60,474 nucleotides of DNA from a virus. The first letter of the stretch is position 1, and every line of letters starts with the position of its first letter. The stretch is taken from positions 1-60,474 of IMG/VR virus record IMGVR_UViG_3300045988_152007, one strand, 5' to 3'. A program made the translations under genes and the position numbers. This document shows, one piece after another, positions 11,100 to 56,592 of this stretch. The notes beneath the pieces were generated by a model that worked only from the letters and a program-made list of their open reading frames with translations, ran no database searches and had not been told where the DNA came from.

Positions 11100-11102
11100 T
11101 TT

Positions 11103-16645: not shown

Positions 16646-16746
16646 ATCTCTATACTAATTTATTTTATTCACCTTCTTTTTTTATTATTATATAAAAAAA
16701 ATGCTTGAAAAGCAAATTTTAAGAACAAGCTTTTCAAGCATTGATG

Positions 16747-17070
16747 TTAAACAAAATGAATAATTAAATTATTAATTTGGACTCCATTATCATTCATAAT
16801 AAAAATTTCATCTACTTTATTATAATTATTATATTCCCAAATTAGTTCTTCATTATCATTATAAACTTTTATATTTTCAATTTTATCTAATTCCATAAGC
16901 CATCCTAACATTTGTTTTATATTATAATTAGATGGCACATTTCCTCTAGCTGCTTCTAATAAAAACATTGTTTTTGGCTAATCATCAGAAGCAGGATGGT
17001 AAGCTCGTTCTGTAACAAAACTTAAATTATCAATAGGTTTATCAACTAAATTATTAATTATAATTTTCAT
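16747..17070 (-). CDS. hypothetical protein (~107 aa), one TAG
   Basis: ATG at 17070 after GGAGAAAG; includes ORF 16747..16968. Confidence 0.5.
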
Positions 17071-36599: not shown

Positions 36600-36676
36600 T
36601 GGTGGGACAGAGAGGTATCGAACCTCCATCCTTTGGTTTTTCAGACCAATGCTCCGACCTCGTAAGCTACTGTCCC
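36600..36676 (-). tRNA. tRNA-Phe(GAA)
   Basis: Acceptor GGGACAG/CTGTCCC, loop CTGAAAA, T-arm GGAGG-TTCGATA-CCTCT, A73, CCA. Confidence 0.8.
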
Positions 36677-38281: not shown

Positions 38282-38932
38282 TTATAATGGTTCATTTCTA
38301 CCTGTGCCACTACATGTGCCAGTACAGCTTTTACATAAACCTGAACAACTTCCTCCACACAATCCAGTACAATCGTTAGCACAATGTCTTGTACAGCTAC
38401 CACTGCATCCACTACATCCTGTATAGCATCCACCTGAGCAAGAACCACTACATCCGCTACAGCTACCACTACAACTGCTTCGACATCCGCCTCTGCAAGT
38501 GTTTTGACAACCTCCTTGGCAAGTATTCTTACAACTACCTAAACAAGTTCCCTAACATTGTACTCCACAACTTTCGCTACAACTGGTAGAACATAATCCA
38601 GTGCAATAAGCTGAACATCCAGTATTCGAATCAGTTAATCCCATAGCTTGATAAGCTGTAATTTTTGCCTCTAATGTACTTAAATCATCATCTTTAATAA
38701 CATTTATATTTTCATTCTGATTTTCAATATTTATTGCCGCCATAGGTTCTACCAGTTTTGTTATGTGTTCTTTTGAAATAACTTTTCCATTATCAGGCTA
38801 AGTAGTATAATCATAAGAAGTCCCTCCATATGAACTTACACTACCGGTATATTTACGACGTAAACATTCAGCCTTTATTTTTTTCTTTAATTCATTGAAT
38901 CTATCAGAAGTTATTGTCGTTCCTATTTTCAT
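38282..38932 (-). CDS. Cys-rich repetitive protein (216 aa; about 30 Cys in the C-terminal 110 aa with GCSGSCSG-type repeats), one TAG; candidate radical-SAM substrate
   Basis: 651 nt in frame; AAGGAGA before ATG; contains ORF 38552..38743, which ends in TAG. Confidence 0.55.
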
Positions 38933-40244
38933 TTGTCATTGTCTCCTTTATTATATTATATTCATCCTAAGAGATAATTTTTAATGCTTTTTCCCTATCT
39001 CCATTAAATTTAAATCGTTTATTCGAGTTTATTTTTTTTAAAATAGAATTTAAATAATATAAAGAAGCTAGAACTGTAGCATAATGCATATCACAAATAT
39101 AAGTAACTCTTTTATTAACATTACCTGTTTCTTGATAATTATAAGCTGTACACCAAGAGCATCCTCCAGAAATTTCACAATCTAAACATTCTTGAGGAGA
39201 TTGACTAATAACTGTTATTTCAGATAAATCTTTTAATCTATTGATGGTTAAATTATCTTGGCCTATTCCCTAATAAATATCTCCAATATAATATTCTGGC
39301 TGATTACTTATGCTATCTTCCATATAACGTAAACATGGATAATATTTACCTTTCCAATTTAAGGCTAACATACGACCATTCCCGCCACACCAATTATCAT
39401 TAGATAAATTTTTACTTCCATCATTAATATAAAAAATAGATAAATAAACTTTATCCCACAAATCATTATTTAATAAATAATCAGCAATTTTTTTTAACTA
39501 ATAATATAATGTAGTGGCATGGTTAAGTTCCCAACCTTTTTCATACACACAATTTAGATTGATTTGACTATAACCATTGTTTATCATTTCTAAAACAGCG
39601 TCATATAAATAATCTATATTAAATGGAGAGATAGTCATTTTACTCCCAATCCATTTATTATAATTATGACTATAATGTAATGCGGCAGACAATGCTTTAT
39701 CATAACTACCACTACCATCAGGGAAAACTCTACAAGCGTCATGTAATTTTTTATTTCCATCAATAGAAATTGATAAACTTAAATTTTCATTATTTTTTTT
39801 AATATACTCTTGTACTTTTTGTTCAAAATATAAAATACCATTAGAACTAATTGAAATTTTATATTTAGTAGCCCAAGGATGCCGCAATTCAATCATTTTA
39901 TTAATAAAATAATCAGTAATCTAATCAATTAATTCAATTTCTAAAAATGGCTCTCCACCTATAAATTCTATTATTACTCCTGGTATTTTATAAGAATCAA
40001 TATAACCAATAATTTTATTATCTCTGGTTAATATCTAATCAATCATCTGTTTAGCTGTTTCAAAAGATAATTTATGTTTACCTTTATGCCCTTGATAACA
40101 ATAAGTACAATTTAAACAACAATCATCTGTAACCTAAAATGTTAATGTAAATACAGACTAAGAATTTAAACAATCTTCAGGATATAAACGACCTATAAAA
40201 TCAGAAAATTCTTCAGGAATGTGGCTTATTTTAGGAAATAACAT
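38904..40244 (-). CDS. radical SAM / SPASM-domain maturase-like protein (446 aa), in-frame TAGs
   Basis: CLNCTYCY, GGEPFL and a C-terminal Cys cluster (CGGNG...CLDCE..GGCSWC); 1341 nt in frame; joins ORFs 39498..39896 and 39270..39461. Confidence 0.6.
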
Positions 40245-40512
40245 CAATAATTACCTCATTTGTATAAAAATCTAAATTCCAATTGCAAGTTTGATTCCCA
40301 ATTTCTGGTTTGATATAATTATTTTCTAATTCTAATTTAGCTAATTCATATTCAGCAAATAATTCTATATACTCATTATGATAATCATCAAAAGCTTTAT
40401 TTCTAATATTTTGTCTAATTAAAAATTGACATAAATTTTTTCTAGCTTCAATTTCATAATTTAATTTCTAAAGATAATTTACTTCTTCTTGAGGAATTAT
40501 AATCTTCTTCAT
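40231..40512 (-). CDS. small hypothetical protein (93 aa), one TAG
   Basis: ATG 40510-40512; ends 14 nt inside the radical SAM gene start. Confidence 0.35.
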
Positions 40513-40620: not shown

Positions 40621-40929
40621 TTATAAACCAAGCTTTTCAATTAAAGCTTTTAAATTTTCTTCTTCTTCTGGACTAATTTCTGTAGCCTTCTTTACAGACT
40701 GAATTGTTGCACCATCTTCAAAATTAAGTTCATTATTACCAAAATCCATAGAACCAAAATTTTCCACAGGAGTTTTCGGACAAGTTAAACTAATTGCAAT
40801 CTGAATATATTGTCCATTTTCTTTAGCTCGCACATAATACTTTTTATCATAAGATCCGAGGAAATCTTCACCAAATGCTTCTGCAATTTTTTCTACAACA
40901 GCATCTTTAGCAATACTACCTTTTGCCAT
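40621..40929 (-). CDS. hypothetical protein (102 aa)
   Basis: ORF track. Confidence 0.55.
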   Translation of the reverse strand: MAKGSIAKDAVVEKIAEAFGEDFLGSYDKKYYVRAKENGQYIQIAISLTCPKTPVENFGSMDFGNNELNFEDGATIQSVKKATEISPEEEENLKALIEKLGL

Positions 40930-42251
40930 TATTCATTCTCCCTATCAAATAAAATTTCATCATAACAAGCTTCACAATAGTAAGCATTGTTTTCTTCATC
41001 ATAAATTAAATCTTTTTTATCATAATACATATTACAATTATCACATATCTAATAATTGTCTCCGCAACTACGGCATACATAACCATCATCATCATCTAAT
41101 GATATTGCTTCAGGAATATAAATACGTCTACCGCACTCTCTACAGAAAGTAAAATCTTCTGTTTCTTCTGTACCATATTTAAGTTCGCAATCAATACAAA
41201 GCATTGTATCTGTTAAAACACAATCATTTTTACCACAAATACAGCATTTTACATCATGTCCTATATTAACTTTAGTAGTGGTACGAGTTCTTGGAAGAAT
41301 TAACTTATCTTGTGGAATACCTTCTTCATGCCAATAAGGTTCACTATAAGCAATACTAAACCAATAGTCATATACAGTAGAATGAAGAGGGTCATTGTAA
41401 TGCAAAGGATTTTTTGGGTCAACAATAACCTTAATATCTGGGGTCATTACGTATCCCGTAGGCAATAAACGAACTTCATTAGAAAAAATTTTATCATTTA
41501 TTGTAAATGTATTATATTTTTCATGACACCAATCAGTAAAACGGTATCCTTGCCCGAAAAATGTTTCATACAGTTCAAGAGCAAAATCTTGTAATCCTTT
41601 ACTTTCATAAGGATAATGCCGACCTGAAATAACCATAGTATCATCATCAGACACATGAAGAAGCATACGCCACTTCTTATCCACCCATGGCACATCATCT
41701 GGAAATCTAGGTAAAACTGCGTCATGTTCACTCTTAATATAACATATAATTGTACAATTATCTGCCATATAAGATAAATTACCAGCCCGATATTCTCCAT
41801 CAAGTGCATGGCATGACCGCCAGTTATGCGTATTTTCACTTAAACTAAGATAATCCAATGGATGAACTGACATACAAAAATATCCACTAATTTTTGTATT
41901 CTGAATGAGCATACTGGCTTTATCTTGTATTTCAGTAAGAATTTCCTTATCTTCTACAAAATATTTAAATGCTTTAATTATTTTCATTCCTTTTGGAATG
42001 ATAGTTCCATTATTCATTGGATAATCTTCGCTTAAAATATTATTATAAAAATCTTTTCTATTATTTTCAACAAAATCTCTTAATTCAAATAAGCCATAAC
42101 GCCAACGAATGTTGTCAATAAAACAATCTAATTCAGCTTTTTTATCATCTTCTGAAATAGACATTGTAATAGGTGCATGGCTTTGATAAATTAATTTATT
42201 ACCAGGAAGCCTGCTATAAAATTTGCATTTATTCTCTTCCCAATCATTCAT
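40929..42251 (-). CDS. paralog family B protein (HPLDY...W.SC core plus C-terminal CxxC zinc-ribbon repeats), 440 aa with one TAG
   Basis: ORF 41049..42251 ends in TAG and continues to TAA 40929-40931. Confidence 0.6.
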
Positions 42252-42331
42252 TAATTTATCAATATTTAAAAGGTTAATATCCAGCCCCTATGAATAGGCA
42301 ATAACCTTCTTTACTTGTTCTTTAATTTCAT

Positions 42332-43330
42332 TTAAATTACAACAGGGACTCGACATTTATTACATACTCTTTCTTTCATATTATTTGAATAAAATAAATT
42401 ATAACATCTTTCACATTGATGAATATTAGGATCAAGTGCTAAACATTCAGGACATACATGGACCTTTACTCCATCAATATCAAGAGGAAAATCTTCCCAC
42501 TCATAATATAACTGATTACAAAAACTACAATTAAGAAGTTTATCATCATCAAAATCATAAGGCATATGATATTTATTAGTTAATGTAATCCACTGAAGAT
42601 ATTCCTTGCTAGGAATAAATTTATATTTATCTGCATTTTCGATATCATCAAGCATTTTACATACTTTATTAATTGTATTATACAATGTTCTAATATGCAA
42701 ATCTTCATTTTGAGTATGTTCATGATGATAGCCAACTGATAAATTTACTCCGGCAATTTCCCATTCAGGCATAATAATACTAATATCTGTAAATGATCCA
42801 ATTGCTTGCTTAAAGCCGAAACTTTCAACATAATCCATGAACGTAAAATTTTCACACTCATAGAAGACACAATCTCTTTCACCAGCTCTATCAAGCTCAA
42901 TCATGTACTTAATATTTGGAGCTACTGGATGTTCTTCAACAAATATATGTGCCCCATAGCCACCCATTTCTTCATCTGTTGTAAAAAGAACATAAGGTCT
43001 ATACTTTTTGCGTAAAATCTGAATAATCGCAAAAACACCTGCTCTATCATCTGCTCCAAGACCTTCCTTGCCTTTATAAACAGCTCTTTTCTCATTATAA
43101 GTAAATTGACGAATTGGCTGTCTAAATACAGTATCTACATGTGCGATAAGCATAACAGGAATATTGCCTTCAGCATATACATAATCTTCTGTAATCTCTA
43201 CATTAGAATATTTATTAGATACAAAATCACCAAGAGCTTTCAAAAGACCTACTTCGCTAATCTTGAATAGTCCTTCCAAAAGCCCTCTACAATTTTCAGT
43301 AAACTCAGGAACTAAAACTTTTTTACCCAT
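42332..43330 (-). CDS. M20/M42-like metallopeptidase-domain protein with a C-terminal zinc ribbon
   Basis: ORF track 332 aa; motifs LIAHVDTV and GADDRAG; C-terminal CPEC...CERC...CNKC. Confidence 0.55.
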   Translation of the reverse strand: MGKKVLVPEFTENCRGLLEGLFKISEVGLLKALGDFVSNKYSNVEITEDYVYAEGNIPVMLIAHVDTVFRQPIRQFTYNEKRAVYKGKEGLGADDRAGVFAIIQILRKKYRPYVLFTTDEEMGGYGAHIFVEEHPVAPNIKYMIELDRAGERDCVFYECENFTFMDYVESFGFKQAIGSFTDISIIMPEWEIAGVNLSVGYHHEHTQNEDLHIRTLYNTINKVCKMLDDIENADKYKFIPSKEYLQWITLTNKYHMPYDFDDDKLLNCSFCNQLYYEWEDFPLDIDGVKVHVCPECLALDPNIHQCERCYNLFYSNNMKERVCNKCRVPVVI

Positions 43331-43359
43331 TTCTTATTCCCTTCTATTATTATATAAAT

Positions 43360-43388
43360 ATTATATAATAATTTTATTAAATAATCAA
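43360..43388 (-). promoter_or_regulatory. sigma70-type promoter TTGATT-N17-TATAAT (minus strand)
   Basis: Motif family member. Confidence 0.5.
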
Positions 43389-44212
43389 TTAGGGCTTATC
43401 TGTTCTTGGTCTTCTCCCTCATGCTCGGCAATATACTCCTTGGCCCATTGACGTCCAGCCCGTTCGAAATATAATACTTTATCACACATTTGACAATAGG
43501 GCTTAGGTGTTTCACATACTTGTTTACAATTAAGACGCATTTCATCAAGACCTTCATACACCAATCTATCATCAATATTAGTATTAAGTCCAAAAATCAA
43601 TGAATTCATGTCATTTGGCCAAGACTTATCTTCAAAATAAATGCGGTAGAAGGCTCGTTCTTGCGTAGGCCCATCATTTTCAAATTCACAAACATCAAAA
43701 TATGGTTCATAAATATCAAGTTTTTCTGGACGAACCCAAGTGCCATGTAAGCCACTCATTTGTGGAATATGCCCTTGGATATATGCCCGATTTGGTACAA
43801 TCCTTAACGGGATATCTATTTTTTTTACTTCATTTAAATCAAAGAAGATAGGAGCATCAATATAAGCATATGATACACCTAATTTTTTTAGATTATACAG
43901 CTCATAATATGTTTTTGCTGGTTCACTATAAAAAAATTTAAAATCGTATTTCTCCATCCAGCGTAATGTAAGCAAAGGATTTAGATCATGCAACCGAATA
44001 TAGAAGGTGTGGCCCTAATGTAGGCCGGCCTTACAAGTAGCTATACTTTTCCAATCCATTGGTTTGCCTTTTGGAGCATCTATGACAAAATCTTTATCAG
44101 GATATTTTTCTACTAAATCAAGAAGTTGGTCAATATATGCCCACTTAACCTCGACCTATTCTGCCTTTTGGAGATATTGTTCTTCTTGATTATGTCTTAA
44201 ACAAACTTTCAT
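43385..44212 (-). CDS. hypothetical protein (275 aa), two in-frame TAG
   Basis: ORF 43385..43993 extends in frame to ATG 44210-44212. Confidence 0.5.
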
Positions 44213-44352
44213 TTTTATCTACTCCTTTTTTATATTATTTTATCATATTATTAATATTTAGTCAAAAAAATTCTTAAACCACTTTTTAATTTGGATGTTC
44301 GGTATAGACGCTTGACCTTGGCCGGAGCAGCATCCTAAAAGGGCAAAACAAA

Positions 44353-44372
44353 AGGGTCGGTTTCCCGACCCT
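44353..44372 (-). terminator. rho-independent terminator GGGTCGGGAAACCGACCC plus T-run
   Basis: GC-rich hairpin then TTTTGTTTTG on the minus strand, right after gene 44380..44775. Confidence 0.6.
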
Positions 44373-44379
44373 TCATTTA

Positions 44380-44775
44380 TTAAGCCTTTGCATAGCACAT
44401 GGCATGACGTGCCTTCTCGCCCTCGCCGCCAGGAATCTTCATTTCCTGCTTCTTTACAAGACCATCGCGGACAAGACCTGCAAGACGATGACGAACCTTA
44501 CCCAGAGTAATATCTTCATCACCAATAAAATCATGAATTACATCAGCAGTACGGAACTGCTCGTCAAGTGCAGCAAATACCTTCTCGCGTGCAATATCAG
44601 GTTCAGCCTTCTTAGCTTCACGCTTCTCGCGATCCTTGGCATTACGCTGATCAATACGGTCAATTTCTGTCTGACAGAAATCAACCAGAGTCTGCGCATC
44701 AACTTCGACCTCTTCACCGCACAGCTTGCCAATCAGAGCATCATACAGCTCACGCTTCGTAAACTTCTTTTCCAT
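44380..44775 (-). CDS. hypothetical protein (131 aa), GC-richer
   Basis: ORF track. Confidence 0.6.
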   Translation of the reverse strand: MEKKFTKRELYDALIGKLCGEEVEVDAQTLVDFCQTEIDRIDQRNAKDREKREAKKAEPDIAREKVFAALDEQFRTADVIHDFIGDEDITLGKVRHRLAGLVRDGLVKKQEMKIPGGEGEKARHAMCYAKA

Positions 44776-44817
44776 AATTTAATGACTCCTTTTATTTTTC
44801 CTTTATTTTATGTATAT

Positions 44818-44846
44818 ATTATATTATTTTATTTTAAAAATTTCAA
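44818..44846 (-). promoter_or_regulatory. sigma70-type promoter TTGAAA-N17-TATAAT (minus strand)
   Basis: Motif family member. Confidence 0.6.
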
Positions 44847-46490
44847 TTAAATCGCGATTGACCTATTGTAACTATAAAAACGCTCAGGATAACGACGAAT
44901 AGCATAAGTATAATCAGTAATTATAGTAGAATAAGGATCATTAGAAATTATCTTTTTAGCCTCTACATTTAAATCATCTTCTTCAATTAAAAGAGCCACC
45001 ATACCATAATAAGGACCGCCATCCAATCGAATTGTTTCAGCTCTAATATCAGTATCTCCAAGATACTTTAAATATTCTTTATTAGCAAGACATTCACTAC
45101 AAATATAATGTTCATCATAATCAATATTAATAGTTTGATTTTCAATATGTCCAACAAATACAGTAGTGAAATCTTCATCAAAATGAGCATCCTCACAGCA
45201 TAAGCATCTATGCAAATCATGATAACAATCTTCGCAAACCAATTCACCATCTACTTCAATTGCATCATTTGCATTAACTCGTTCGCCACAGCAATAACAA
45301 TAAGTGGGTGGATCACAGTCTTCACAAACCACCATTTCAGTATCATCAGACCAATAAGCATCCTCGCCGCAGCACATACAAGTCATTAAACCAGAATAAT
45401 TAATTGTAAATGTACGATATTTATTGTTTGGTGAATTAATTGAAAAAATTCCATAATTCTCTGTATTACCAAAATCATTATACATTTCATTTGTTGCAAA
45501 ATCCAACAGAAAATGATTATTCTTATCTTCTTTATCTTGCCAAGCTCCAATATAAGAGCAACTTTCCAAACTCTCTTGTGGCTTTTTTCTGTTATAACGC
45601 CATTCAGTTTTTTCTTCAACCAAATCAACAAGCCAATTTACAAGAGCTTTATCAAATGCAATATTATAATAAGGATAAGATTTTACAGAACAAATAGCAT
45701 TCGGATGGACAATAATTAATTCTCTCCAGCTTTTAGAAGTCCATTCAATAGAAGTGTTTGCTGGATAATAAGGTTTAGTAGTAATATATGCTATAACAAC
45801 TAATGGACTATTCATCATCTCAATAGTACCAGCACGATAACTTCCTGGTCCTTGAGTCCAGTTCATACAACTTTCCCATCCATTTGCATTATCGCTCATA
45901 GTCATATAATCCAAAGGATGAATAGATAGAGTAAATTTGATTTTAGATTTGCGTACTTCGGTAATACGTGAAATATGATTGCGGAAAATTTCAAAATCAG
46001 GTAAATCAAATTCTTTAGCCATTTTTTGAAGAACTTTCATTACCTTGGCTCCTTCTGGAACTTTAACTGCCTTACCATCTTTATTATGATAAATAAATCC
46101 TTTAGCAACTCTATTAGTAAAAAGTTGATAAGCTTGAATTAAATTATATATTGCATGTTTTGTTGCATAACTATCGTCAAAATAAATATTATTAAGCTCA
46201 AATAACTTACGAAGATTCTTAATAAAATTAATACCAGGATTAAAACTATAGAGATATTCACTAACTTCTCTTATTTTTTTATTATCTCCATCTTCAACCT
46301 GGATTTCCTTCTCCAGCATTAACTTTTCACCAAAAATATCAAACAGAGTTTGCTTACTCTTATTCCATTCTCGAAGGATATAATCAAGAGGGGCTTTAAG
46401 TTTAACGGGGGAATTAATGCCACCCCATTTTTCAATATATTCAGTAATATATTTCTTATCTTGGGCCGTTAATGCTTCATAAGGTGTCAT
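44847..46490 (-). CDS. paralog family B protein (547 aa)
   Basis: ORF track; SIHPLDYMTMSDNANGWESCMNW motif plus C-terminal CxxC repeats. Confidence 0.7.
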   Translation of the reverse strand: MTPYEALTAQDKKYITEYIEKWGGINSPVKLKAPLDYILREWNKSKQTLFDIFGEKLMLEKEIQVEDGDNKKIREVSEYLYSFNPGINFIKNLRKLFELNNIYFDDSYATKHAIYNLIQAYQLFTNRVAKGFIYHNKDGKAVKVPEGAKVMKVLQKMAKEFDLPDFEIFRNHISRITEVRKSKIKFTLSIHPLDYMTMSDNANGWESCMNWTQGPGSYRAGTIEMMNSPLVVIAYITTKPYYPANTSIEWTSKSWRELIIVHPNAICSVKSYPYYNIAFDKALVNWLVDLVEEKTEWRYNRKKPQESLESCSYIGAWQDKEDKNNHFLLDFATNEMYNDFGNTENYGIFSINSPNNKYRTFTINYSGLMTCMCCGEDAYWSDDTEMVVCEDCDPPTYCYCCGERVNANDAIEVDGELVCEDCYHDLHRCLCCEDAHFDEDFTTVFVGHIENQTINIDYDEHYICSECLANKEYLKYLGDTDIRAETIRLDGGPYYGMVALLIEEDDLNVEAKKIISNDPYSTIITDYTYAIRRYPERFYSYNRSIAI

Positions 46491-46550
46491 GATTATTTAC
46501 TCCCTTTATTTTTTCTATAAATATTTTATAATATTTTTTTATAAAAATAA

Positions 46551-46586
46551 AAAAGGGATAAAGAATCAAATCTTTATCCCTTTTTT
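46551..46586 (-). terminator. hairpin AAAAGGGATAAAGA...TCTTTATCCCTTTTTT
   Basis: Stem plus T-run downstream of gene 46595..47095. Confidence 0.55.
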
Positions 46587-46594
46587 ATCTATGT

Positions 46595-47095
46595 TTAATT
46601 ATCTTTTGTCTGATTATATGTCACAATAGGTTCACAAACGAAGCAACACATAGCACAAGAAACTTTAACAGCTTCTTCTGAATCATGTCCAAGATGAAGG
46701 GCTGTCAAAGCATAAGGAGCACCAGCACCGATGGCATAATAATCTTTAATTTCTCTAACCAAATATCCACAAATCTGAAAAAGATGACCTCCAAAAGCCA
46801 TTAAATAACTATTCTTAATATCACGAGTATTAGCAATATCGCCTTTCCATTTACCAAATTCAGCAAAATAATTAAGAATTTCTCTCTCTGTAGCATTAAG
46901 CGGCTGATGATTTTCCATATATAGCCACATAAGGCTACATTCATCTGCATTACCAACACTACCAACAATCATATCATTTAAAGAAATAATTTTAGTAAAG
47001 TTAGTATTGGGGTCTTTTTCCCATCCATTAGTTAAAATACTATCTGCAGACATTTGAATATTATTATCATATACCTTCGCGGCAACTACGCTCAT
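46595..47095 (-). CDS. HslV/proteasome-beta-like Ntn-hydrolase family protein
   Basis: ORF track 166 aa; AIGAGAPYALTA and VGSVGNADE resemble the HslV motifs AIGSGGPYA and GFAGGTADA. Confidence 0.45.
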   Translation of the reverse strand: MSVVAAKVYDNNIQMSADSILTNGWEKDPNTNFTKIISLNDMIVGSVGNADECSLMWLYMENHQPLNATEREILNYFAEFGKWKGDIANTRDIKNSYLMAFGGHLFQICGYLVREIKDYYAIGAGAPYALTALHLGHDSEEAVKVSCAMCCFVCEPIVTYNQTKDN

Positions 47096-47120
47096 TTTAT
47101 ATTACCTCATTTAATATTAT

Positions 47121-47709
47121 TTTATTTATAAATTGTTCCCTTTAACAAATCGGGTAATTCATTATTAAGAACTTCTTTCCACCCAATTATATTACCTTCA
47201 AAACCTTCAAGGTCTTTGAAATTGCCAGTTGGGCAAGTTTGACTAATCTTACTATCTACAACAAGCTCAATTAATTCATCACAAATAATACCGTGAATTA
47301 AATCCCAGTTTTTTGTATGGCGGTCTTGCTTTTCATCAGCTTTAACGACCTTAATCTCTGAACCATCTTCACAAATAAAAATCCATTTTGAACCAATCTT
47401 ACCGAAATACCTTCCAAGAGCACAAGCAGTATAGCCATCATCAGTAGCTAATGTGCCGTTCTCCTAAATGGTTAAATAATTATGAATTAAATCCCATTGA
47501 GGACTATCAGTAGATGTAATATCAGTCCACCATTCAAAGGGTTTATTAGTATGGTCGATTCCGCAATTACAATATTCTGTAGGACCGTATTCGATTTCTG
47601 ACCTGCTTCCGCCATCAGCACTATAACTTTTTATGTTAAAAGCATTTACTGGCATCATCATTAAAGCAACCATAGCGATTACAAGAATGACATTTAAGAA
47701 TTTTCGCAT
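47121..47709 (-). CDS. secreted hypothetical protein (signal peptide), one TAG
   Basis: ORF 47464..47709 (MRKFLNVILVIAMVALMMMPVNA) ends in TAG and continues to TAA ~47121. Confidence 0.5.
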
Positions 47710-47802
47710 ATTAATTCTCCTTCAATATAAAATAAATAACTAGTAAATAATACTATATTTCATATGAAAAGTCAAATTTAATAGCTAAAAAGAATTGACC
47801 AC

Positions 47803-48582
47803 TCAAAAGCGGTCAATATTATTTACAGCATCATCCATTTTATCATGCCAGAGGAAAATATCTTCCAAAGGGTCGATACAATTAAAAAAGATAATATTAT
47901 GCTTATTAATAAATCTATCACAATGATAATGACCAAAGAGCCATACATCATATGTAATCATATTCTTAATTTCTTCAAGCCATTCTTCCATAGAAGTATC
48001 TACGGTAGATTGATCTACTATTGAAAGGAATTTATCAACTGGCCTAAGAGAATAAGGGCAGGTGTGTGATAGTACAAGATCAAAATGCTTATTAGTTTGT
48101 CGAATAAGCATTTCAGCATCAACTTTTTCTTTATTATTTAATTGTTCATCTTCCCACCAAAGCAAATTGTTTTTAAGACGATAATATTTATCAACAGAAT
48201 AAGCACCACCAATAACTAATGTACGATATTCTCTATCTTCGGTTTTAAGATAATAAATCCCGTAATTATCAAAATATCTAATCAGAGGGTGAGTCGGCTC
48301 ATACCATACATTAGCCTGAACATTGCTATCCCAAACACGCTCCATACCTTCAACGTTTTCAGGACGTACTTCATGATTGCCATGCACGCAATAAATAAAA
48401 TATCCAAACTGGCTTGCATATTCTTTCTTCATATTATCTCTGAATGCACTACCAGTATTAAAACCGCAGTCTCCAAGGATAATAATTGCGTAGTCTTTTG
48501 GATTTAAAATTCTAAACATTCTTGCATTAAGCCATGTGAAATCACCATGACAATCGCCTCTAATCAGATAGTCCTTGAACAT
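47803..48582 (-). CDS. calcineurin-like metallophosphoesterase
   Basis: ORF track 259 aa; motifs GDCHGD, GDCG, GNHE. Confidence 0.7.
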   Translation of the reverse strand: MFKDYLIRGDCHGDFTWLNARMFRILNPKDYAIIILGDCGFNTGSAFRDNMKKEYASQFGYFIYCVHGNHEVRPENVEGMERVWDSNVQANVWYEPTHPLIRYFDNYGIYYLKTEDREYRTLVIGGAYSVDKYYRLKNNLLWWEDEQLNNKEKVDAEMLIRQTNKHFDLVLSHTCPYSLRPVDKFLSIVDQSTVDTSMEEWLEEIKNMITYDVWLFGHYHCDRFINKHNIIFFNCIDPLEDIFLWHDKMDDAVNNIDRF

Positions 48583-48595
48583 TGAAGTTCCCTCC

Positions 48596-48787
48596 TTACG
48601 TATTTTCTTCTTTAGCCAGCTCTTCCTTTAATTTTTCTACTTTTTCTATAACTGCACTAAGCACAACAGCTTGAGCCCCAAATCTGGTAAAATGTTCAGT
48701 CAACCATTTACCAAGATCATCAAAATTGTTTTCAATTTCTTCAATATCTCGACTATCAATTTCAATAGTCATATTATCTTCAGACAT
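48596..48787 (-). CDS. small acidic hypothetical protein (63 aa)
   Basis: ORF track. Confidence 0.45.
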   Translation of the reverse strand: MSEDNMTIEIDSRDIEEIENNFDDLGKWLTEHFTRFGAQAVVLSAVIEKVEKLKEELAKEENT

Positions 48788-49595
48788 TTAACATTTCCTT
48801 TACAATTCTTTTTTTCATAATAAGATAAACAATCTTATTCATAAAATCTTCAAGTTCTTCATTACCTTCATCCTTGGTCTTAGAACAATAATCATCAGCT
48901 ACTCTTGTAATATTATTAATAGCAGTATTTGCTACAATTCGTGCAGTTTCAAGATCATAGTGATAATTTTTTACAGCAAGAAGATAATCACCCCTTGGTG
49001 CCTGAAGACAATCAGCATACTTAACCTCATCAATATAACGTCCAAGATACTGTTCGATACGAAGCAAATGCATAAGCTGCTTACTATCATAACCATATGT
49101 ATCAATCAGATGAGTTTTAGTAGGATATCTATGCTCCATTGCATGATATTTTTCCATAGCAATACCCTTCATTGTCTTAACTGCCTTGTAAGGATTATAA
49201 CGTGCAATAGCTTCACGCTCATTAAGCAGTGCCTGCCACTCATTCCAATACACGCTTGATGCCATTTTATAAGGTGTGAAGATACATTCAAGATATGCCA
49301 TATTCTGTTTCTTCAAACAATCAATGAACAAACGAATATCTTTAAAATCAATGTGTTCATCATTAGGAAGAATTTTGGTATAAGACACTGGCTTTTTATT
49401 CAATACAATATCTTCAAATGAAGGAAGAACAATAAGCCGGGTATCTACATCAGACAATTGAGTATCAAGACCATAGTTCTGGCTACCATAAGCCATTAAG
49501 CTAACCCAATTTTCTCCTCTGACATTAACTGCTTCTAAATGAGTTTCTACTTTATCCATAACCCATTTATCTAAATGGTAATTCATAATTATCAA
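48780..49595 (-). CDS. nucleotidyltransferase-fold protein (Pol-beta superfamily)
   Basis: ORF track 271 aa; GS...DVD motif (AYGSQNYGLDTQLSDVDTRLIV). Confidence 0.55.
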   Translation of the reverse strand: MIIMNYHLDKWVMDKVETHLEAVNVRGENWVSLMAYGSQNYGLDTQLSDVDTRLIVLPSFEDIVLNKKPVSYTKILPNDEHIDFKDIRLFIDCLKKQNMAYLECIFTPYKMASSVYWNEWQALLNEREAIARYNPYKAVKTMKGIAMEKYHAMEHRYPTKTHLIDTYGYDSKQLMHLLRIEQYLGRYIDEVKYADCLQAPRGDYLLAVKNYHYDLETARIVANTAINNITRVADDYCSKTKDEGNEELEDFMNKIVYLIMKKRIVKEMLNV

Positions 49596-49599
49596 CTCC

Positions 49600-49845
49600 T
49601 TAAATCATTGAAAACTGTTCATCTTCAAAAATTCCTTCATATACAAATCCAATAGTATCAGAATAAACATTATCAATGGCATCGTATTCTCGCACGTGTG
49701 AATAGCCCCAATAATATCTACTCTCTCCTGCGGCTTTGCGAATAATTTGATTGGCATGTTCAGCATCAAGGGCAGCAACTAGACTAAATCCATGCCACCC
49801 TACCTGTGGTTCAATCAGATACACCTTACATTTATATTCAGTCAT
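49600..49845 (-). CDS. hypothetical protein (81 aa)
   Basis: ORF track. Confidence 0.5.
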   Translation of the reverse strand: MTEYKCKVYLIEPQVGWHGFSLVAALDAEHANQIIRKAAGESRYYWGYSHVREYDAIDNVYSDTIGFVYEGIFEDEQFSMI

Positions 49846-49847
49846 AC

Positions 49848-50078
49848 TTATTCCTCTACAAAATGAATAATTAAATCATAACCTTCTTCCGTTTCAACCA
49901 TTTCATATGGATGATGAAGATCAATTTTATATCCATCTCGCTTTTGAATTTCAACACCTTGAGAACCAATAGCATCAGGGAAAATACGAATCCTATTAGA
50001 AGTATAATTCCAAGAGGAAATAAGAATCATTCCGGCAGCTATAATCAATAGGATTGTTATAACACACTTTTTAATCAT
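49848..50078 (-). CDS. small membrane protein (76 aa)
   Basis: ORF track; hydrophobic N-terminal segment. Confidence 0.5.
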   Translation of the reverse strand: MIKKCVITILLIIAAGMILISSWNYTSNRIRIFPDAIGSQGVEIQKRDGYKIDLHHPYEMVETEEGYDLIIHFVEE

Positions 50079-50316
50079 TTGCAGTCATATCCTTCCATGT
50101 ACAAGTATTAAGCCAGTATCGTGTCTGATTACTACCATCTTTAGAACTCGCCGCTAGCCCCTGACCGATGAGGCCACGCATAACACCTGAAACCCCTTGT
50201 GATGTAATATCAAAATCATACTTACGCTTTGCGAACGCTGAAATTTGCTTTGCAGTAAGAGTGCCGCTTTCTTTAAGAATTTTAATTACCATTTCTTTTT
50301 TTCCCATTACATCCAA
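50071..50316 (-). CDS. hypothetical protein (81 aa)
   Basis: ORF track. Confidence 0.5.
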   Translation of the reverse strand: MDVMGKKEMVIKILKESGTLTAKQISAFAKRKYDFDITSQGVSGVMRGLIGQGLAASSKDGSNQTRYWLNTCTWKDMTAND

Positions 50317-50762
50317 TCCTCGCTTACCCTTTCATTAACCGGTCTGACTACATTAAGTTCAATAGGTTCCCAATTGTAATCAGCCCAGTGAAGCCAATCA
50401 GTTGCTGTCCATTTATTATGTTCTTCAACTAACTTATCTATTTTCTTCATTTGGCAGTTACAATCAATGACAATACGTTCATATTTCTTATATTGTTTCT
50501 TGGCGTCTTTGTATTCAGGATTTTCCTTACCCACCTGAAGGATGGGAAGATATTTATTCATGTCCTGAATTGCTTCATGGCGTTTAGTTTCGTATCGAGC
50601 TTTTTCAGCTTTGAGAGTTTCAAAATGATTATGAATGCTACTTTGCATTAGAGTTGAATGAAACAACTCTTCAAGATAATCATTCAACTTATCTTCAGTA
50701 AGATAACCAAGCTTCTGCTCTTCATAATAAGGACCATATGTTAGTCTATAAATGCGTTCCAT
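50307..50762 (-). CDS. hypothetical protein (151 aa)
   Basis: ORF track. Confidence 0.55.
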   Translation of the reverse strand: MERIYRLTYGPYYEEQKLGYLTEDKLNDYLEELFHSTLMQSSIHNHFETLKAEKARYETKRHEAIQDMNKYLPILQVGKENPEYKDAKKQYKKYERIVIDCNCQMKKIDKLVEEHNKWTATDWLHWADYNWEPIELNVVRPVNERVSEDWM

Positions 50763-50841
50763 ATCTCTCCCATCCTTTCTATATATATTATATCAAATTT
50801 TTTATAAATTTTCGAGTATTCAATTTTGGCAAGAATTTAAA

Positions 50842-52506
50842 CTAAACATAATCATCAGGATAAGTCGCCTTTAGCCGCATCTTGGCATCAGCAATTCTTT
50901 CAAGGGACAGAAATGGCTCCCATACCTTTTTATCTGCCTTGTCAACATCAATATACTGAAAATCGCCCCACAAGTCTGGCTCCTTCGGTGCATCACCAAA
51001 ATCATAATCTTCATAACAATCATCACAGACATCAATGGGATTTCCAACATCACGACGATGCTTACCATTAGGAGTTTTTACTTCAAACATATAGGGAAGA
51101 GCCTGCTTCTTGAAATCATAATCAAGCCATTTAGTTTCTCCGCAACAGCTACAAGTCTGAGTGCGGCCATCTGCACACCAGCTACAATAAGTTGCACCGT
51201 CCCCTTCACAGAACCAAGCATCTTCACTATCAATCCAAGAGCCACAATCATCACACTGGACTTTGCCTTCACAGGTTGCACATACGACTTTATCACATTC
51301 TACAAATGCATCTACATTTCCACTCGGATCAGCTTCATAGCCTTTACCGCAGCACATACATTCAGCTACACCAGAATAGTAAACTTCTACTTCTTTTACT
51401 TCTGGATTGATATAAGCATAATGATTATCATAATAATCATTATACATAGCTCCAGTTCTCATGCGGATATAAACCTGACCAAAATCAGTATCATTGCTCT
51501 GATTCTGCCAAACCTCATACATCTTATCGTCGTAATGCCAGCCCATATTCTGTTCAGCTAACTGCTTAATTTTATTCAGCACATAATCACGCAGATAAAT
51601 ATTGTTATAAGGATACTGCTTAATTTCAGTGATAATATCCTTATTAACAATATAAAGACACCGCCAACGCTTATTACTCCAAGTTCTTTTGTCACGGTCA
51701 ATAGGACAATAAGGATGCTCGGATTCAACATATGCTTCAAGGATGACAGGAGAATTCATCATTTCAACAGTGCCAAGACGATAATCACCGCCCTGATACC
51801 AGTTCATACAACTCTCCCAATCACAAGCATTATCACTCATAGTAAGATAATCAAGCGGATGAATAGAGAGTACAATATCAGCATTAATCATACGATCATT
51901 CAAAACACGCGAATGAAGAATACGAAACTGCTCAAATGCTTCTTTATCCAGCTCAAACCAATCGACAATTTTAGCCATCATTCGCATCAGCTTCATATCA
52001 CTCTTCAACTCAAGCGGCTTCGAAGTATCTGCATGCGGACCACGGCGAATAACAACAGATTTGCGACCCCAATCAAACATATATACATTTTTATTGGCTA
52101 CGAGAGATTCACTATCAAGGCAATGGTCAATCATGCTACAACAATTAACACGTTCATCTTTATCAAGAGTGGTATCCATCCAAGAATAATAAATATTAGT
52201 AATTTGCTCGTAAGAATCAATGAATTTTTTGACGTTTGCTAATTCAGGATTATTATAAATTTCTTCATACATTTCACCGAATTTATCCATCAAATCATCT
52301 CCAGATGCCTGATAGGAAATATGGTCTTCGACCATCAAATTATTACCAAGCAACTCATACAGGTCAGGCTTTTCAGCAGCCCAAAACCGCAGAAGATGAT
52401 TAATTTCATCTACAGTGCAGTAATTATCAGAATGAAGGTACTCTTTAATATAATCATGCAGCAGATTCTTTTCTTCTTCTGGAATGAGTGTCCTCAAATC
52501 TGTCAT
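50842..52506 (-). CDS. paralog family B protein (554 aa)
   Basis: ORF track; SIHPLDYLTMSDNACDWESCMNW motif plus C-terminal CxxC repeats. Confidence 0.7.
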   Translation of the reverse strand: MTDLRTLIPEEEKNLLHDYIKEYLHSDNYCTVDEINHLLRFWAAEKPDLYELLGNNLMVEDHISYQASGDDLMDKFGEMYEEIYNNPELANVKKFIDSYEQITNIYYSWMDTTLDKDERVNCCSMIDHCLDSESLVANKNVYMFDWGRKSVVIRRGPHADTSKPLELKSDMKLMRMMAKIVDWFELDKEAFEQFRILHSRVLNDRMINADIVLSIHPLDYLTMSDNACDWESCMNWYQGGDYRLGTVEMMNSPVILEAYVESEHPYCPIDRDKRTWSNKRWRCLYIVNKDIITEIKQYPYNNIYLRDYVLNKIKQLAEQNMGWHYDDKMYEVWQNQSNDTDFGQVYIRMRTGAMYNDYYDNHYAYINPEVKEVEVYYSGVAECMCCGKGYEADPSGNVDAFVECDKVVCATCEGKVQCDDCGSWIDSEDAWFCEGDGATYCSWCADGRTQTCSCCGETKWLDYDFKKQALPYMFEVKTPNGKHRRDVGNPIDVCDDCYEDYDFGDAPKEPDLWGDFQYIDVDKADKKVWEPFLSLERIADAKMRLKATYPDDYV

Positions 52507-52571: not shown

Positions 52572-52593
52572 AAGGAGCCTTTAACAAGGCTCC
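52572..52593 (-). terminator. hairpin AGGAGCC-TTTAACAA-GGCTCCT
   Basis: Seen directly; downstream end of gene ..53504. Confidence 0.45.
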
Positions 52594-53504
52594 TATAAAA
52601 GTAAATCATCTATTGTTAAATCTTTATATTTCGTATATGGTATTCTAATTAATGGAATATTATTATCTCTACACCATTGAGTTTTTATATTGTCTCTATA
52701 TTGCATATCATCTATTGACTCTCCCCAATTTTTTGTAGGAGCATCTATAGAATGCTATATTCCATCATATTCAATTAAATATTTATTATCAATAAAAAAA
52801 TCAAATCTTAATTTTTTATTAGTTTTAGGATTAATACAATCATCAAAACTCTTTTCTCTTACATAAGGGATATGATATTCTTCTAATATCTATTGTATTT
52901 TTAATTCTCCATGAGATATTTTTAAACATCCACAAGATTGAGTGTCACCGCTACTTAAATGACTTCCTCTCACTGAAACTATATTACCACAATCACATTG
53001 ACAAATCCAATATTTAATTTTAGGAATTGATTTTTCTGTATCTAATTTTATAACAGTTAATAATCCAAACCTTTTACCTACTAAATTAACAGTAGATGTT
53101 TCAGAAGTTCTTTCTTTCTAATAGCATCCGCAAGATTTAGTATGACCTGTATTTAAATGATTTGTATTTACTATCACTTTATTACCACATTTACATTGAC
53201 ATTCCCATAAGGCACTATTAGGCATACGTCGTAAAACAGTTAAATATCCATAAACTTTTCCAGTTAAATCTTCAGATTGATTAGCCTCTCTTGTTTTTTC
53301 TCTTTGTAAACAACCACAAGACTATGTAGGTTTAGCTCTATTTAAAGAAGCACTTGATATATCAAGTTCATTACCGCAATCGCATTTACAATGCCATAGA
53401 ATACGATTATAACTATTTTTTTTACCCGTATCATATTCTACTAACAATCTACCAAATCTTTTTCCAGTTAAATCTTTCTTTGCTGGCATATAAAAATCCT
53501 CCAT
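52581..53504 (-). CDS. free-standing endonuclease-like protein: three W.C.C.CGN...SCGC zinc-binding modules plus a C-terminal Vsr/DUF559-like EYDG.QH domain; in-frame TAGs; 3' end uncertain
   Basis: ORF 53322..53504 ends in TAG and the frame continues; repeats were hand-translated. Confidence 0.45.
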
Positions 53505-53556: not shown

Positions 53557-55173
53557 TTAATTAGTCTTACCCGGAAAATTATTCATCATAAGCATCGGCA
53601 GAAGCCAATCTTTATCACCATCAGCCTTATCCGACATAAGATAGAGCATCATAGGATTAAAACCGGTCATACCATTTGCACCATTCATAAGCAGCATCAT
53701 AGGAAGAATATCTTTCATGGACTTATTATTGTCATCAAGAAGAGTAAACATCCACATATTGCCCAGAGGGTTGTCTTTAGAAGGAGGAGCCATCATATTA
53801 TCAAAAAGGCTTACAATTTTAGTAATAAAACTAAAATTACCAAAAGGAGACTTTGTAGGCATAATAGTCTTCTTTTCACCCATTGCAATATCAATTGCAA
53901 TTACATCACCCTGCTCGGAGAAACCAAAGACAAAACACGGACGTCTGTTGAAAATAATCACATCACCAGCTTCAATGGCGTCAATGCCAACAGGCATCTT
54001 GAAGAACATATTATCAGCCTTAAAGTTGAAAATATCAACATCCATAATCTCGCCATTCTTCTTATCATAAGCCTGATATGTGCCATTAACATTCTTAACC
54101 GCCAGACCATACGGCGACATACGAACAGCATCATTATCCTTAATCGGACCAAAATCAAAATTAAACATCTTCATATTATTTCCTTTACCTTTCACATCAT
54201 CATTGTTTGTTTCAAGTTTATTAATTCTTTCTTCCATTGTATCAATACGGCTAGTTAAACTATCACAGATTGAAACAGTAGCTGTAGTATATGGATTATA
54301 AGTAATACCAGAATCACCATTAACTTCAATAGTTTTCCCTATAACACTTTCGCCAGTAATAGAACTAGCTGTAGAAGCGGTTGGACGATATCCCCAATCT
54401 ATACTAACAGACGCAGTAGAAGCTGTTTCATCTTTAATATCCAATTTAGCTGGATCAATAGGGCTAACATTAATAGTTGCCGTATCAGAAAATGTGGTAT
54501 TTTTTACTTTATCTACATTTTCATATACTTTATTAAGCCATTCAGTATTTTCGTTAATTTTATTATAACAATTATTAAGAATCTCAGTAGTCTTATTAAA
54601 TTCGCAATTGAGCTTCTTTATATCTTTTTTTACATCATTAAAAATCGCTTGACCAGTTGTACCCTCCACCGCGGGATTAAGTGCCCAATTAATAGCACGC
54701 CAACCGATGCCGTCCTCTGAACTATAAGCTCCTAAATTAGTTAAGCCAAATAGCCTATAATCATCTACCTTTTCATCAGCTTCTACCCAATCAAAATAAT
54801 CATAGAACAACATATCGGCCAAATATGTACCAAATGAATAATCATCTTCAGAAGTATTATACTTCTTATCAGTACCTACCATTCTAAAATTATCTGAATC
54901 TTTTAAATACTTAAATTCCTGAATATGGACTATAGTAGGAGCAAGACAGGTATTATTAATCTCAAACCATACTACCTTATAGTCTCCATCCATTAAATGG
55001 AGAACTTTCCAATCAGTATAAAGCAGTTTATTATAAGCTCCGGCTTTAACATTTTTGTTAAAATCATCTAGTAACTTTTCCCAGGCTTCTTTATTATAAA
55101 CTTTGGCATCATAGACTGGACTATAAGTTCTTTTCTTGTCCATCGGCCATATGTCTTTTAAATAAGCTTTCAT
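53557..55173 (-). CDS. hypothetical protein (538 aa) with a Met-rich C-terminus
   Basis: ORF track. Confidence 0.65.
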   Translation of the reverse strand: MKAYLKDIWPMDKKRTYSPVYDAKVYNKEAWEKLLDDFNKNVKAGAYNKLLYTDWKVLHLMDGDYKVVWFEINNTCLAPTIVHIQEFKYLKDSDNFRMVGTDKKYNTSEDDYSFGTYLADMLFYDYFDWVEADEKVDDYRLFGLTNLGAYSSEDGIGWRAINWALNPAVEGTTGQAIFNDVKKDIKKLNCEFNKTTEILNNCYNKINENTEWLNKVYENVDKVKNTTFSDTATINVSPIDPAKLDIKDETASTASVSIDWGYRPTASTASSITGESVIGKTIEVNGDSGITYNPYTTATVSICDSLTSRIDTMEERINKLETNNDDVKGKGNNMKMFNFDFGPIKDNDAVRMSPYGLAVKNVNGTYQAYDKKNGEIMDVDIFNFKADNMFFKMPVGIDAIEAGDVIIFNRRPCFVFGFSEQGDVIAIDIAMGEKKTIMPTKSPFGNFSFITKIVSLFDNMMAPPSKDNPLGNMWMFTLLDDNNKSMKDILPMMLLMNGANGMTGFNPMMLYLMSDKADGDKDWLLPMLMMNNFPGKTN

Positions 55174-55453: not shown

Positions 55454-56047
55454 TTACAAACAAGAAATAGAACCTTCCGGGGTAGTCAATTGTGCAGTTG
55501 CAGTATAATTATATTTAACAAGTTCAACAATACCATCCTCATTAACTACACACTTATAAATATGTTTAAGTTCAGCATCATTTTCAACCGTTTGCTTAAT
55601 AAGCTGGGCACTACTAATTGCCGCCTTACAAATTGCCTCTTGGCTTTCTTCTTTGAGTGTCTGACAATCTGCTTTCATAAGGTCACAAAATTCAAGACCC
55701 TTAAGCAGTTCTGCTTCCTGCATTGCTTTAGTTCTTTTATTTTCCCACCATTGGATAAATTTACGGTATTCCTTATAAGAACTAAAATACACATAAAATT
55801 TACTTTCACCAACAATATTTTTTTTACCAATTTTATAAGAAATGCTAGTATCACTAATACACCATTTATCAGGCTTAATAGCAGAGTATTTCATTACTTC
55901 ATCAAAGGTAAGCTCAACAGTTTTATCATGCCATCCAATGGCTTCCTTTTTAAAACGCTGATAATCTTCCCAATTCTTAAAATAGCTAAATACTATAAAA
56001 CAGATAATAGCAAATACAATAAAAATACCTAAAATAATTAAAAACAT
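55454..56047 (-). CDS. membrane-anchored hypothetical protein (197 aa)
   Basis: ORF track; N-terminal transmembrane helix. Confidence 0.6.
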   Translation of the reverse strand: MFLIILGIFIVFAIICFIVFSYFKNWEDYQRFKKEAIGWHDKTVELTFDEVMKYSAIKPDKWCISDTSISYKIGKKNIVGESKFYVYFSSYKEYRKFIQWWENKRTKAMQEAELLKGLEFCDLMKADCQTLKEESQEAICKAAISSAQLIKQTVENDAELKHIYKCVVNEDGIVELVKYNYTATAQLTTPEGSISCL

Positions 56048-56592
56048 TACTTATTATCCTCCTTCTTCTGTCGCAGATCATGGTCTTCGCCATCATAAAT
56101 TTCACGATATTTAGTAAACAGAGAGCCATCATTATAATAATATCTAATACTATTCCAACCATTATAATGATCAGTCAAATCAGGCCAATCTACAATACGT
56201 GCCTGCCGTTCAAGCTCCTGCTGCGGCACAACTCTATGTCTCTTGGAGTTCCATTCCTTTGAATTTTCTACACTAGCGATAATAACCATAAGCTGGTAGT
56301 TATCAAAATGAGGAAAACGGCTTCTGATTTCTTCTCTCTGTCCAAGAGTCAAACAATTAGTATCAATGATAATATCTGCCTTATCCATCTCTGCACAATG
56401 TACAATCTGATATAATGTCTGCCAAACTTCGAACTTATGACAGCGGTTGCATTCATCACCATTGAAGACAGCATACAATTCATCAGGGTTTACATACCGG
56501 ATGTGATTCATCTTTGCGAAGGATTTCGCGAATGTAGTCTTTCCATTTGCACTCAAGCCGCACATCATATATAGAGTCGCCATCAACTTCAT
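56047..56592 (-). CDS. P-loop NTPase, polynucleotide-kinase/zeta-toxin-like
   Basis: ORF track 181 aa; Walker A GLSANGKTT. Confidence 0.6.
   Translation of the reverse strand: MKLMATLYMMCGLSANGKTTFAKSFAKMNHIRYVNPDELYAVFNGDECNRCHKFEVWQTLYQIVHCAEMDKADIIIDTNCLTLGQREEIRSRFPHFDNYQLMVIIASVENSKEWNSKRHRVVPQQELERQARIVDWPDLTDHYNGWNSIRYYYNDGSLFTKYREIYDGEDHDLRQKKEDNK

Follow-up and report, generated by a model that had tools for sequence, protein, structure and literature searches.

The question raised by this locus is what a phage gains from three related minus-strand genes whose products all end in arrays of CxxC pairs. The genes, labelled here pA, pB and pC, lie in a 60,474-nucleotide stretch of viral DNA (IMG/VR record IMGVR_UViG_3300045988_152007, positions 1 to 60,474; this whole stretch is called the window). 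An earlier sequence-only reading had regarded their products as an uncharacterised family, perhaps of anti-defence or host-takeover proteins, that is diversifying. The analysis reported here shows that pA, pB and pC are members of a single unnamed family, which is very large and restricted to phages. As judged against Pfam, NCBIfam, PADLOC, PHROGs and PDB, this family and the seven-gene module that it occupies are outside every described family.

Paralogs, gene models and TAG

The homology of the three minus-strand genes, proposed from their motifs, was found to be far above chance. BLASTP comparisons gave E values of 8e-55 for pB with pC (31% identity over 450 residues), 4e-17 for pA with pB and 5e-19 for pA with pC. 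In the three-way alignment the motifs S(I/V)HPLDY..S.N...W.SC, G.YR.G, W..K.WR, YPY and YND are followed by the CxxC arrays. The S(I/V)HPLDY and G.YR.G motifs had been read as a core common to all three proteins, and they are; the EMMNSP stretch read along with them is present in pB and pC only (pA has LSYMADN). Under genetic code 11 the open reading frames (ORFs) of pA, pB and pC are 41049..42251 (400 residues), 44847..46490 (547 residues) and 50842..52506 (554 residues), respectively. The following gene models, and one tRNA gene, were used:

40929..42356, minus strand: pA, member of the short subfamily; 475 residues under genetic code 15, with a GNAT-like core and six CxxC pairs; matches phrog_18912 (2.2e-19)
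44847..46490, minus strand: pB, member of the long subfamily; 547 residues, TAA stop, no TAG; at the canonical module position directly upstream of a 131-residue gene
50788..52506, minus strand: pC, second member of the long subfamily; 554 residues up to the TAG at 50842-50844, 572 residues with read-through
2466..2540, minus strand: suppressor tRNA with the anticodon CTA, labelled tRNA-Pyl by ARAGORN

Two in-frame TAGs are contained in pA, at codon 23 (42288-42290) and at codon 436 (41049-41051). The latter is the code-11 stop, and read-through to the TAA at 40929 adds ICDNCNMYYDKKDLIYDEENNAYYCEACYDE..., which holds two further CxxC pairs; in most short-type homologs the third finger of the pA type is encoded without interruption in one ORF. 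The gene starts upstream at 42356, and the N-terminal helix added in this way is homologous to the N-terminal helix of other members. The sequence-only coordinates of this gene (40929..42251) were correct at their end and 105 nucleotides too short at their start. In 50 of 54 homologs the position of codon 23 is taken by CAA or CAG (Gln), and TAG was assigned to Gln for this reason. The marks of code 15 were found together: conserved genes contain in-frame TAGs, a suppressor tRNA(CUA) is encoded, and TAG lines up with Gln codons of homologs. They identify the phage as one that reads TAG as Gln, and full-length pA can be produced only under that reading.

The reading frame of pC likewise stops at a TAG, and read-through adds 18 residues, to 50788. 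This basic tail (50788..50844, minus strand; FKFLPKLNTRKFIKNLI) is DNA-identical in three close relatives and resembles the uninterrupted C-terminus (…MPKFFAKAVSFVKN) of a 38%-identical homolog in locus L004. Its identity and this likeness suggest that the read-through product is real, so that pC probably extends to 50788. The CTA suppressor tRNA would be needed for full-length pA and for the tail of pC. Public gene calls on near-identical 188-kb contigs give 475 residues for pA and 572 for pC. With the corrected models each paralog has six CxxC pairs, consistent with the four to six that had been counted at the gene ends.

Between 1 and 12 in-frame TAGs per gene occur in most of the minus-strand genes from ~4 to 40.5 kb, a region that holds tail-fibre genes, and none occurs in the genes at 44.4-50.8 kb and 55.4-58.9 kb. 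The window contains 13 tRNA genes. As a separate observation, ARAGORN called a tRNA-Phe with the unusual anticodon AAA at 36116..36186 (minus strand), perhaps a pseudo-tRNA or a false call; a normal tRNA-Phe(GAA) lies close by, at 36600..36676.

Family, core and zinc-finger tail

A phmmer search of 1.84 billion cluster representatives with pC returned 2542 proteins at E≤1e-3 and 1307 at E≤1e-30. With ~2500 clusters at 50% identity, the family is among the larger unnamed protein families measured here. Its members are found on phage contigs of ~90-400 kb, mostly from gut metagenomes. "Bacterial" occurrences were met only on contigs of metagenome-assembled genomes (MAGs), mostly from bins of Clostridia or Lachnospiraceae; the length of several of them, 150-176 kb, suggests mis-binned phage.

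That the family is uncharacterised, as had been stated, was borne out by the database searches. Pfam, NCBIfam and PADLOC scans of the three proteins gave no match (among the PADLOC defence-protein models only a chance-level Cas10 match, E 0.22), and nothing useful came from scanning ten further members and the Enterococcus-phage homologs against Pfam. Among database families only two PHROGs of unknown function were hit, 18912 and 29713, to which pA matches at 2.2e-19 and 1.8e-4, respectively. PDB sequence and profile searches matched the zinc fingers alone and found no sequence relative of the core. Megablast of the region against 50,697 phage records gave no match, and tblastn with pB gave a single weak unannotated match. 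The names attached to the family clusters are "hypothetical protein" only, and literature searches found no description of the family; the nearest publication (PMC10607447) describes the genomes of a related phage group and mentions Enterococcus phage EF1.

Each of the three proteins consists of a helical N-terminal region, an alpha/beta core and a strongly acidic C-terminal array of three Cys4 zinc sites. The stretch LSIHPLDYMTMSDNxCxWxSCMSW is nearly unchanged among 150 listed representatives, and the near-invariant core can be written as S-[IV]-H-P-x-D-Y ... W-x-[ST]-C ... G-x-Y-R-x-G ... W-x-x-K-x-W-R ... Y-P-Y. In a 100-member alignment the following residues (pC numbering) are invariant: W42, S199, H216, P217, D219, Y220, S224, N226, W230, S232, C233, G240, G245, W276, K279, R282, Y298, P299 and D357, together with the cysteines of the first zinc sites.

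Structure prediction with AlphaFold2 from the 100-sequence alignment gave a predicted local distance difference test score (pLDDT) of 92.5 for full-length pC and of 93.4 for the core alone (residues 170-384). A Foldseek search against PDB gave no significant match (best E 0.2). The model shows a confidently predicted core without a close structural relative in PDB and with a remote GNAT-like resemblance only, and the same fold class came back when the full-length pC model was used for the search. The N-terminal arm of the GNAT fold, b1-a1-a2-b2-b3-b4-a3 of a mixed sheet, is present in the model. To the GNAT superfamily (Gcn5, AAC enzymes, VipF) the likeness is weak and confined to the fold level.

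Several features weigh against a closer assignment. The C-terminal arm b5-a4-b6 is absent from the model, since DSSP assigns only strands after a3 (330-333, 336-340, 343-350, 361-366 and 372-376); in GNAT enzymes helix a4 contributes to binding of coenzyme A (CoA). The motif A loop Q/R-x-x-G-x-G/A between b4 and a3 is replaced by Y298-P299-Y300-N-N, which contains no Gly and in which Y298 and P299 are invariant and Y300 is nearly so. The model supports neither use of CoA nor true GNAT membership. Because the b4-a3 loop differs and helix a4 is absent, the core is described here as remotely GNAT-like and was not filed as GNAT.

A loop of this kind brings in the aminoacyl-tRNA-dependent transferases, which lack the CoA P-loop motif as the phage family does. 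Under this explanation the long and short proteins would form a transferase pair (like ATE1, L/F-transferase or FemX) that acts together with a PepT-like aminopeptidase and either remodels protein N-termini, for example degradation signals, or builds a peptide. The constant pairing of the family with an amino- or tripeptidase-like enzyme (see below) and the wealth of tRNA genes in this phage are in keeping with it. In ATE1, a Cys-rich metal site is combined with a GNAT-like core. The structural likeness to FemA/FemX, ATE1 and L/F-transferase is nevertheless weak and at fold level, with scores no better than those of ordinary acetyltransferases and no sequence similarity to the Fem, ATE or Aat families. 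The phage family is also far more acidic than these enzymes: the core, too, is strongly acidic, with a median net charge of about -9.5, which is unfavourable for tRNA binding, and no tRNA-binding feature was identified in the family. We regard this explanation as very doubtful.

An architectural idea common to the phage family is found in the MYST family and in Eco1/ESCO, where a zinc-binding module is joined to an acyltransferase-like core; MYST enzymes have been proposed to use a catalytic Cys. In the phage core, the dense clustering of invariant polar and aromatic residues points to a putative active site around Asp219 and Cys233. Diverged relatives bear on which residues could take part. 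The cultured Enterococcus phages EF1, EF5, VRE9 and H1 (~140 kb) contain three very divergent members, one belonging to phrog_29713 and two to phrog_18912, and these two flank a peptidase of phrog_34186. The PHROG 18912 and 29713 members are true homologs that keep the association with the phrog_34186 peptidase; they differ from the family described here in that identity is only ~24% and the His of HPxDY is not conserved. The residues kept even in distant members are S-[IV]-x-P-x-D, W-x-[ST]-C, G-x-Y..G, [WY]-R and Y-P. His216 is replaced by R or D in two of the Enterococcus-phage members, which counts against a fixed catalytic set and leaves its composition uncertain. A His-Cys-Asp triad as the universal catalytic set was rejected for the same replacements.

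The zinc sites of pC are spaced C383-x2-C386-x22-C409-x2-C412-x5-C418-x2-C421-x19-C441-x2-C444, followed by the third site. A profile of this region matches the LIM domain of CRP2 (E 1.1e-7) and that of CRP1 (~1e-7); the Pfam LIM model reached 17.6 bits against a cut-off of 22.9 in the single matching member. The LIM pattern is C-x2-C-x16-23-(H/C)-x2-C-x2-C-x2-C-x16-21-C-x2-(C/H/D). The first two Cys4 sites of the phage family follow each other with LIM-like spacing, but the inter-finger linker is 2 residues long in LIM domains and 5 in the phage family, whose ligands are all Cys and which adds a third finger and a phage context. LIM domains mediate protein-protein docking. The median isoelectric point of the family is 4.76, and the median net charge of the zinc-finger region is -13. 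Since the proteins are so strongly acidic, the tail would be a protein-docking device rather than a nucleic-acid binder. A DNA-primase-like or other nucleic-acid-binding zinc-ribbon role was rejected on account of the net charge of about -13. Two points tell against docking: an acidic tail would equally suit DNA mimicry, and one Enterococcus-phage member is wholly without zinc fingers. A database search with this zinc-finger-less member returned only 9 close matches, without names or domains.

The conserved module and its surroundings

Seventy-nine IMG/VR loci were scanned with hidden Markov models of the family members and of the neighbouring genes. Almost every locus has a high-scoring long member and, 2.5-6 kb downstream on the same strand, a divergent short (pA-type) member. 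The order of the module is: 538-residue protein, long member, 131-residue protein, 275-residue four-Cys protein, PepT/M20-like peptidase, short member, 102-residue protein. Besides pB and pA, its genes in the window are:

53557..55173, minus strand: 538-residue protein with a Met-rich C-terminus; no Pfam or PHROG match; directly upstream of the long member in other phages
44380..44775, minus strand: 131-residue protein; a charged helix, then a winged-helix-like stretch (read in the sequence); no family match
43385..44212, minus strand: 275-residue protein; two in-frame TAGs; invariant C-x3-C-x6-C-x2-C near the C-terminus
42332..43330, minus strand: PepT/M20-M28-like metallopeptidase, next to the short member on its upstream side; four CxxC pairs in its C-terminal tail
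40621..40929, minus strand: 102-residue protein that closes the module; conserved N-terminal half, variable acidic linker and conserved C-terminal L..LGL

The peptidase, the 131-residue gene and the 275-residue gene were each found in 69 of the 79 loci, and the 102-residue gene in 58. Synteny in related phages, which had been named as a check, was recovered: the module order is kept in the IMG/VR loci and in the MAG-binned contigs, and the positions are fixed across phages of only ~30% identity. In the Enterococcus phages the 131-, 275- and 102-residue genes were not detected. Profile searches of the 102- and 275-residue proteins against PDB and Pfam gave nothing useful. In the present phage the long gene is duplicated (pC and pB), with ~4 kb of accessory genes between the copies. 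On one 402-kb contig (IMGVR_UViG_3300032167_000002) the long and short pair occurs at two loci, L033 and L043, ~200 kb apart; this could be a duplication of the whole module or a concatemer assembly artefact.

The peptidase matches Pfam M28 (1.2e-7; 32.1 bits against a cut-off of 21.3), phrog_34186 (1.4e-41) and PDB PepT (5.6e-5), and is closest to PepT-type tripeptidases. The metal-ligand pattern of M20/M28 enzymes, H-x-D, D, E-E, D/E and H, is visible in the motifs AHVDTV, GADDRAG, TDEEMGG, ELDR and GYHHEH, and all but ELDR align with PepT 3gb0. Its zinc tail aligns with the zinc fingers of the family in hhalign (92-94% probability, E about 1e-7), values that the Cys-rich composition may inflate. 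Terminator-like GC-rich hairpins (minus strand; consensus matches only) lie at 40594-40624 after the 102-residue gene, at 44351-44374 after the 131-residue gene and at 52573-52594 upstream of pC. They weakly suggest that the module stops before the radical SAM gene described below, and may split the module into separate transcription units.

Selection on these genes was estimated as the ratio of nonsynonymous to synonymous substitution rates (dN/dS) against close relatives of 84-99% amino-acid identity. The values are 0.08-0.14 for pC, 0.15-0.24 for pB and 0.04-0.10 for pA; the other module genes gave comparable values, ~0.02-0.11 for the peptidase and the 131- and 275-residue genes and ~0.24 for the 538-residue gene. 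No sign of gene-wide diversifying selection was seen in the dN/dS of pA, pB or pC. The split into a long subfamily (pB and pC) and a short subfamily (pA) is old.

These results bear on the proposal that each paralog of a diversifying anti-defence or host-takeover family neutralises a different host target, with a tail that is perhaps a nucleic-acid mimic. In its favour are the several copies per genome, the very acidic proteins, the restriction of the family to phages, the accessory genes of RNA-repair or counter-defence flavour between pC and pB, and the failure of any housekeeping fold to be assigned. The claim of diversification is not supported, given strong purifying selection (dN/dS 0.04-0.24), two ancient subfamilies at fixed positions in the seven-gene module across phages that are ~30% identical, and candidate active-site residues kept in all copies. 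The accessory insert is moreover lineage-specific (4-7 of 79 loci) and unlinked to the family elsewhere. Both the kept gene order and the purifying selection speak against an accessory gene caught in an arms race, and the proposal is considered unlikely; the family may still be a conserved host-takeover enzyme.

The neighbours that had been named, an M20-like peptidase, a metallophosphoesterase, a nucleotidyltransferase and an HslV-like peptidase, are as described by their Pfam, PHROG and PDB matches. Apart from the module, the surroundings comprise:

46595..50762, minus strand: insert that separates pC from pB, lineage-specific and outside the conserved module; homologs in 4-7 of 79 loci; additionally holds small ORFs
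46595-47095, minus strand: HslV-like N-terminal nucleophile (Ntn) hydrolase in the insert; phrog_1040, 1.4e-19
47122-47709, minus strand: 195-residue ORF in the insert
47803-48582, minus strand: metallophosphoesterase; Pfam, 1.1e-11
48780-49595, minus strand: RlaP-like nucleotidyltransferase; 6e-6
52581..53504, minus strand: 307-residue protein between the 538-residue gene and pC; five in-frame TAGs; no Pfam match
38904..40247, minus strand: radical S-adenosylmethionine (SAM)/SPASM-like enzyme; 446-447 residues; seven in-frame TAGs and no other stop
58862..60019, minus strand: S-adenosylmethionine synthetase; Pfam C-terminal domain, 8.4e-59; N-terminus longer in the code-15 ORF, which contains a single in-frame TAG

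The metallophosphoesterase, the RlaP-like ("RNA repair pathway") nucleotidyltransferase and an AAA_33 P-loop kinase (56047..56592, minus strand) resemble an RNA end-healing or repair toolkit; they are not conserved with the module. In the 307-residue protein the unit G(K)xFGxLxV...WxCxCxCGN...SCGC occurs three times, and the C-terminal region has an endonuclease-like look. Its gene calls vary among near-identical contigs (123 or 302 residues), and it may be a mobile, homing-endonuclease-like insert. The radical SAM/SPASM-like gene adjoins that of a 216-residue Cys-rich protein (38282..38932, minus strand), the public gene call of which weakly matches Pfam tSAM_targ_Cxxx_rpt. The two look like a phage-encoded radical SAM enzyme with its modified peptide or protein, and were found in 2 of 79 related loci. 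A link of the family to this adjacent radical SAM gene was rejected on that count and for its position beyond a terminator-like hairpin. Further radical SAM genes (11352..12722 and 12722..14224, minus strand) occur in an AT-rich island at 6000..17000 (19-26% GC), together with a fusion of radical SAM and glycosyltransferase family 2 at 14669..16672 (minus strand); the three island genes have 6-12 TAGs each.

The late-looking setting invites a non-enzymatic explanation, in which the family members would be assembly or structural proteins (chaperones, scaffolds for tail fibres or the virion, or internal ejected proteins) and the conserved motif a binding surface. The module adjoins tail-fibre-like genes in the window (an Mtd_N match, and a Gly-rich fibre read in the sequence); a Gly-rich domain protein lies downstream in locus L005, and an annotated collagen-like "tail fiber protein" lies inside the module of VRE9_3. 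Several module genes contain TAG, and published work links TAG recoding to late expression (bioRxiv 10.1101/2021.08.26.457843). The proteins are acidic, as scaffolds often are. Set against this are some twenty invariant polar and aromatic residues in one loop-helix region, a pattern that active sites typically show and scaffolds seldom do, and the partnership with a peptidase whose metal-ligand motifs look intact. In VRE9_3 the block furthermore heads an operon that runs into the RNR, Sak4, DnaB, RecJ, Dda, thymidine kinase and DNA polymerase genes. A structural role is decidedly unlikely on this evidence.

The same replication and nucleotide-metabolism operon would suit an enzyme that modifies nucleic acids, by Mom-like acyl or aminoacyl modification of DNA or by tRNA modification, with the 131- and 102-residue proteins as nucleic-acid-binding partners. 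Phage Mom is described in PMC13219725 and bioRxiv 10.1101/2023.03.24.534169 as a GNAT-fold enzyme that modifies DNA with charged tRNA. The winged-helix-like 131-residue protein of the module (as read in the sequence) fits this explanation, as do the SAM synthetase, kinase and radical SAM genes nearby in the window; the latter are, however, not conserved with the module (radical SAM in 2 of 79 loci). The core is strongly acidic, as is the zinc-finger region, and no similarity to Mom or to other DNA-modification families was found. Of the explanations set out here this one was judged the least probable.

Candidate activity

The reading preferred here, tentatively and at well below even confidence, is a cysteine-dependent, transferase-like pair of enzymes that is docked via zinc fingers on a protein target and works together with the peptidase. 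The core would be the enzyme, the first half of its fold resembling GNAT-type acyl or aminoacyl transferases. Its active site would be formed by Asp219 and Cys233, both universally conserved, aided by Tyr242, Arg282 and Tyr298, without the classical CoA-binding loop motif. Because the peptidase carries a homologous tail, the zinc fingers may recruit both enzymes, long and short, as well as the peptidase to one shared partner, in all likelihood a basic protein, which the enzymes and the peptidase would then modify and trim in a coupled way. The long and short members might form a heteromer or act in sequence. Against their joint action, the short member is absent in loci L092, L094 and L098, and both the short member and the peptidase are absent in L101; as some phages thus keep the long member without the short one, or without the short one and the peptidase, an obligate heteromer is unlikely.

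In a wider form of the proposal, the seven-gene module would be an undescribed enzyme system and belong to the core gene set of gut Bacillota phages of a very large clade: two paralogous, remotely GNAT-like Cys enzymes and a PepT-like peptidase, targeted by a common acidic LIM-like tail, would carry out a new protein modification or N-terminal remodelling, and the full-length short subunit would be gated by a TAG-to-Gln switch. Taken as a whole, this wider form is unlikely. The probability that remains was left to an explanation not yet imagined.

The fixed gene block, with its tail-sharing peptidase, points to an undescribed, conserved biochemical activity in infection. The dependence of pA on TAG read-through offers a concrete case for studying how a code switch gates the production of a phage protein. 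With diverged members present in cultured Enterococcus phages, the family is tractable by experiment. If solved, it would assign a function to part of the "dark matter" of the gut virome, and could uncover novel enzyme chemistry or a new route by which phages manipulate host proteins.

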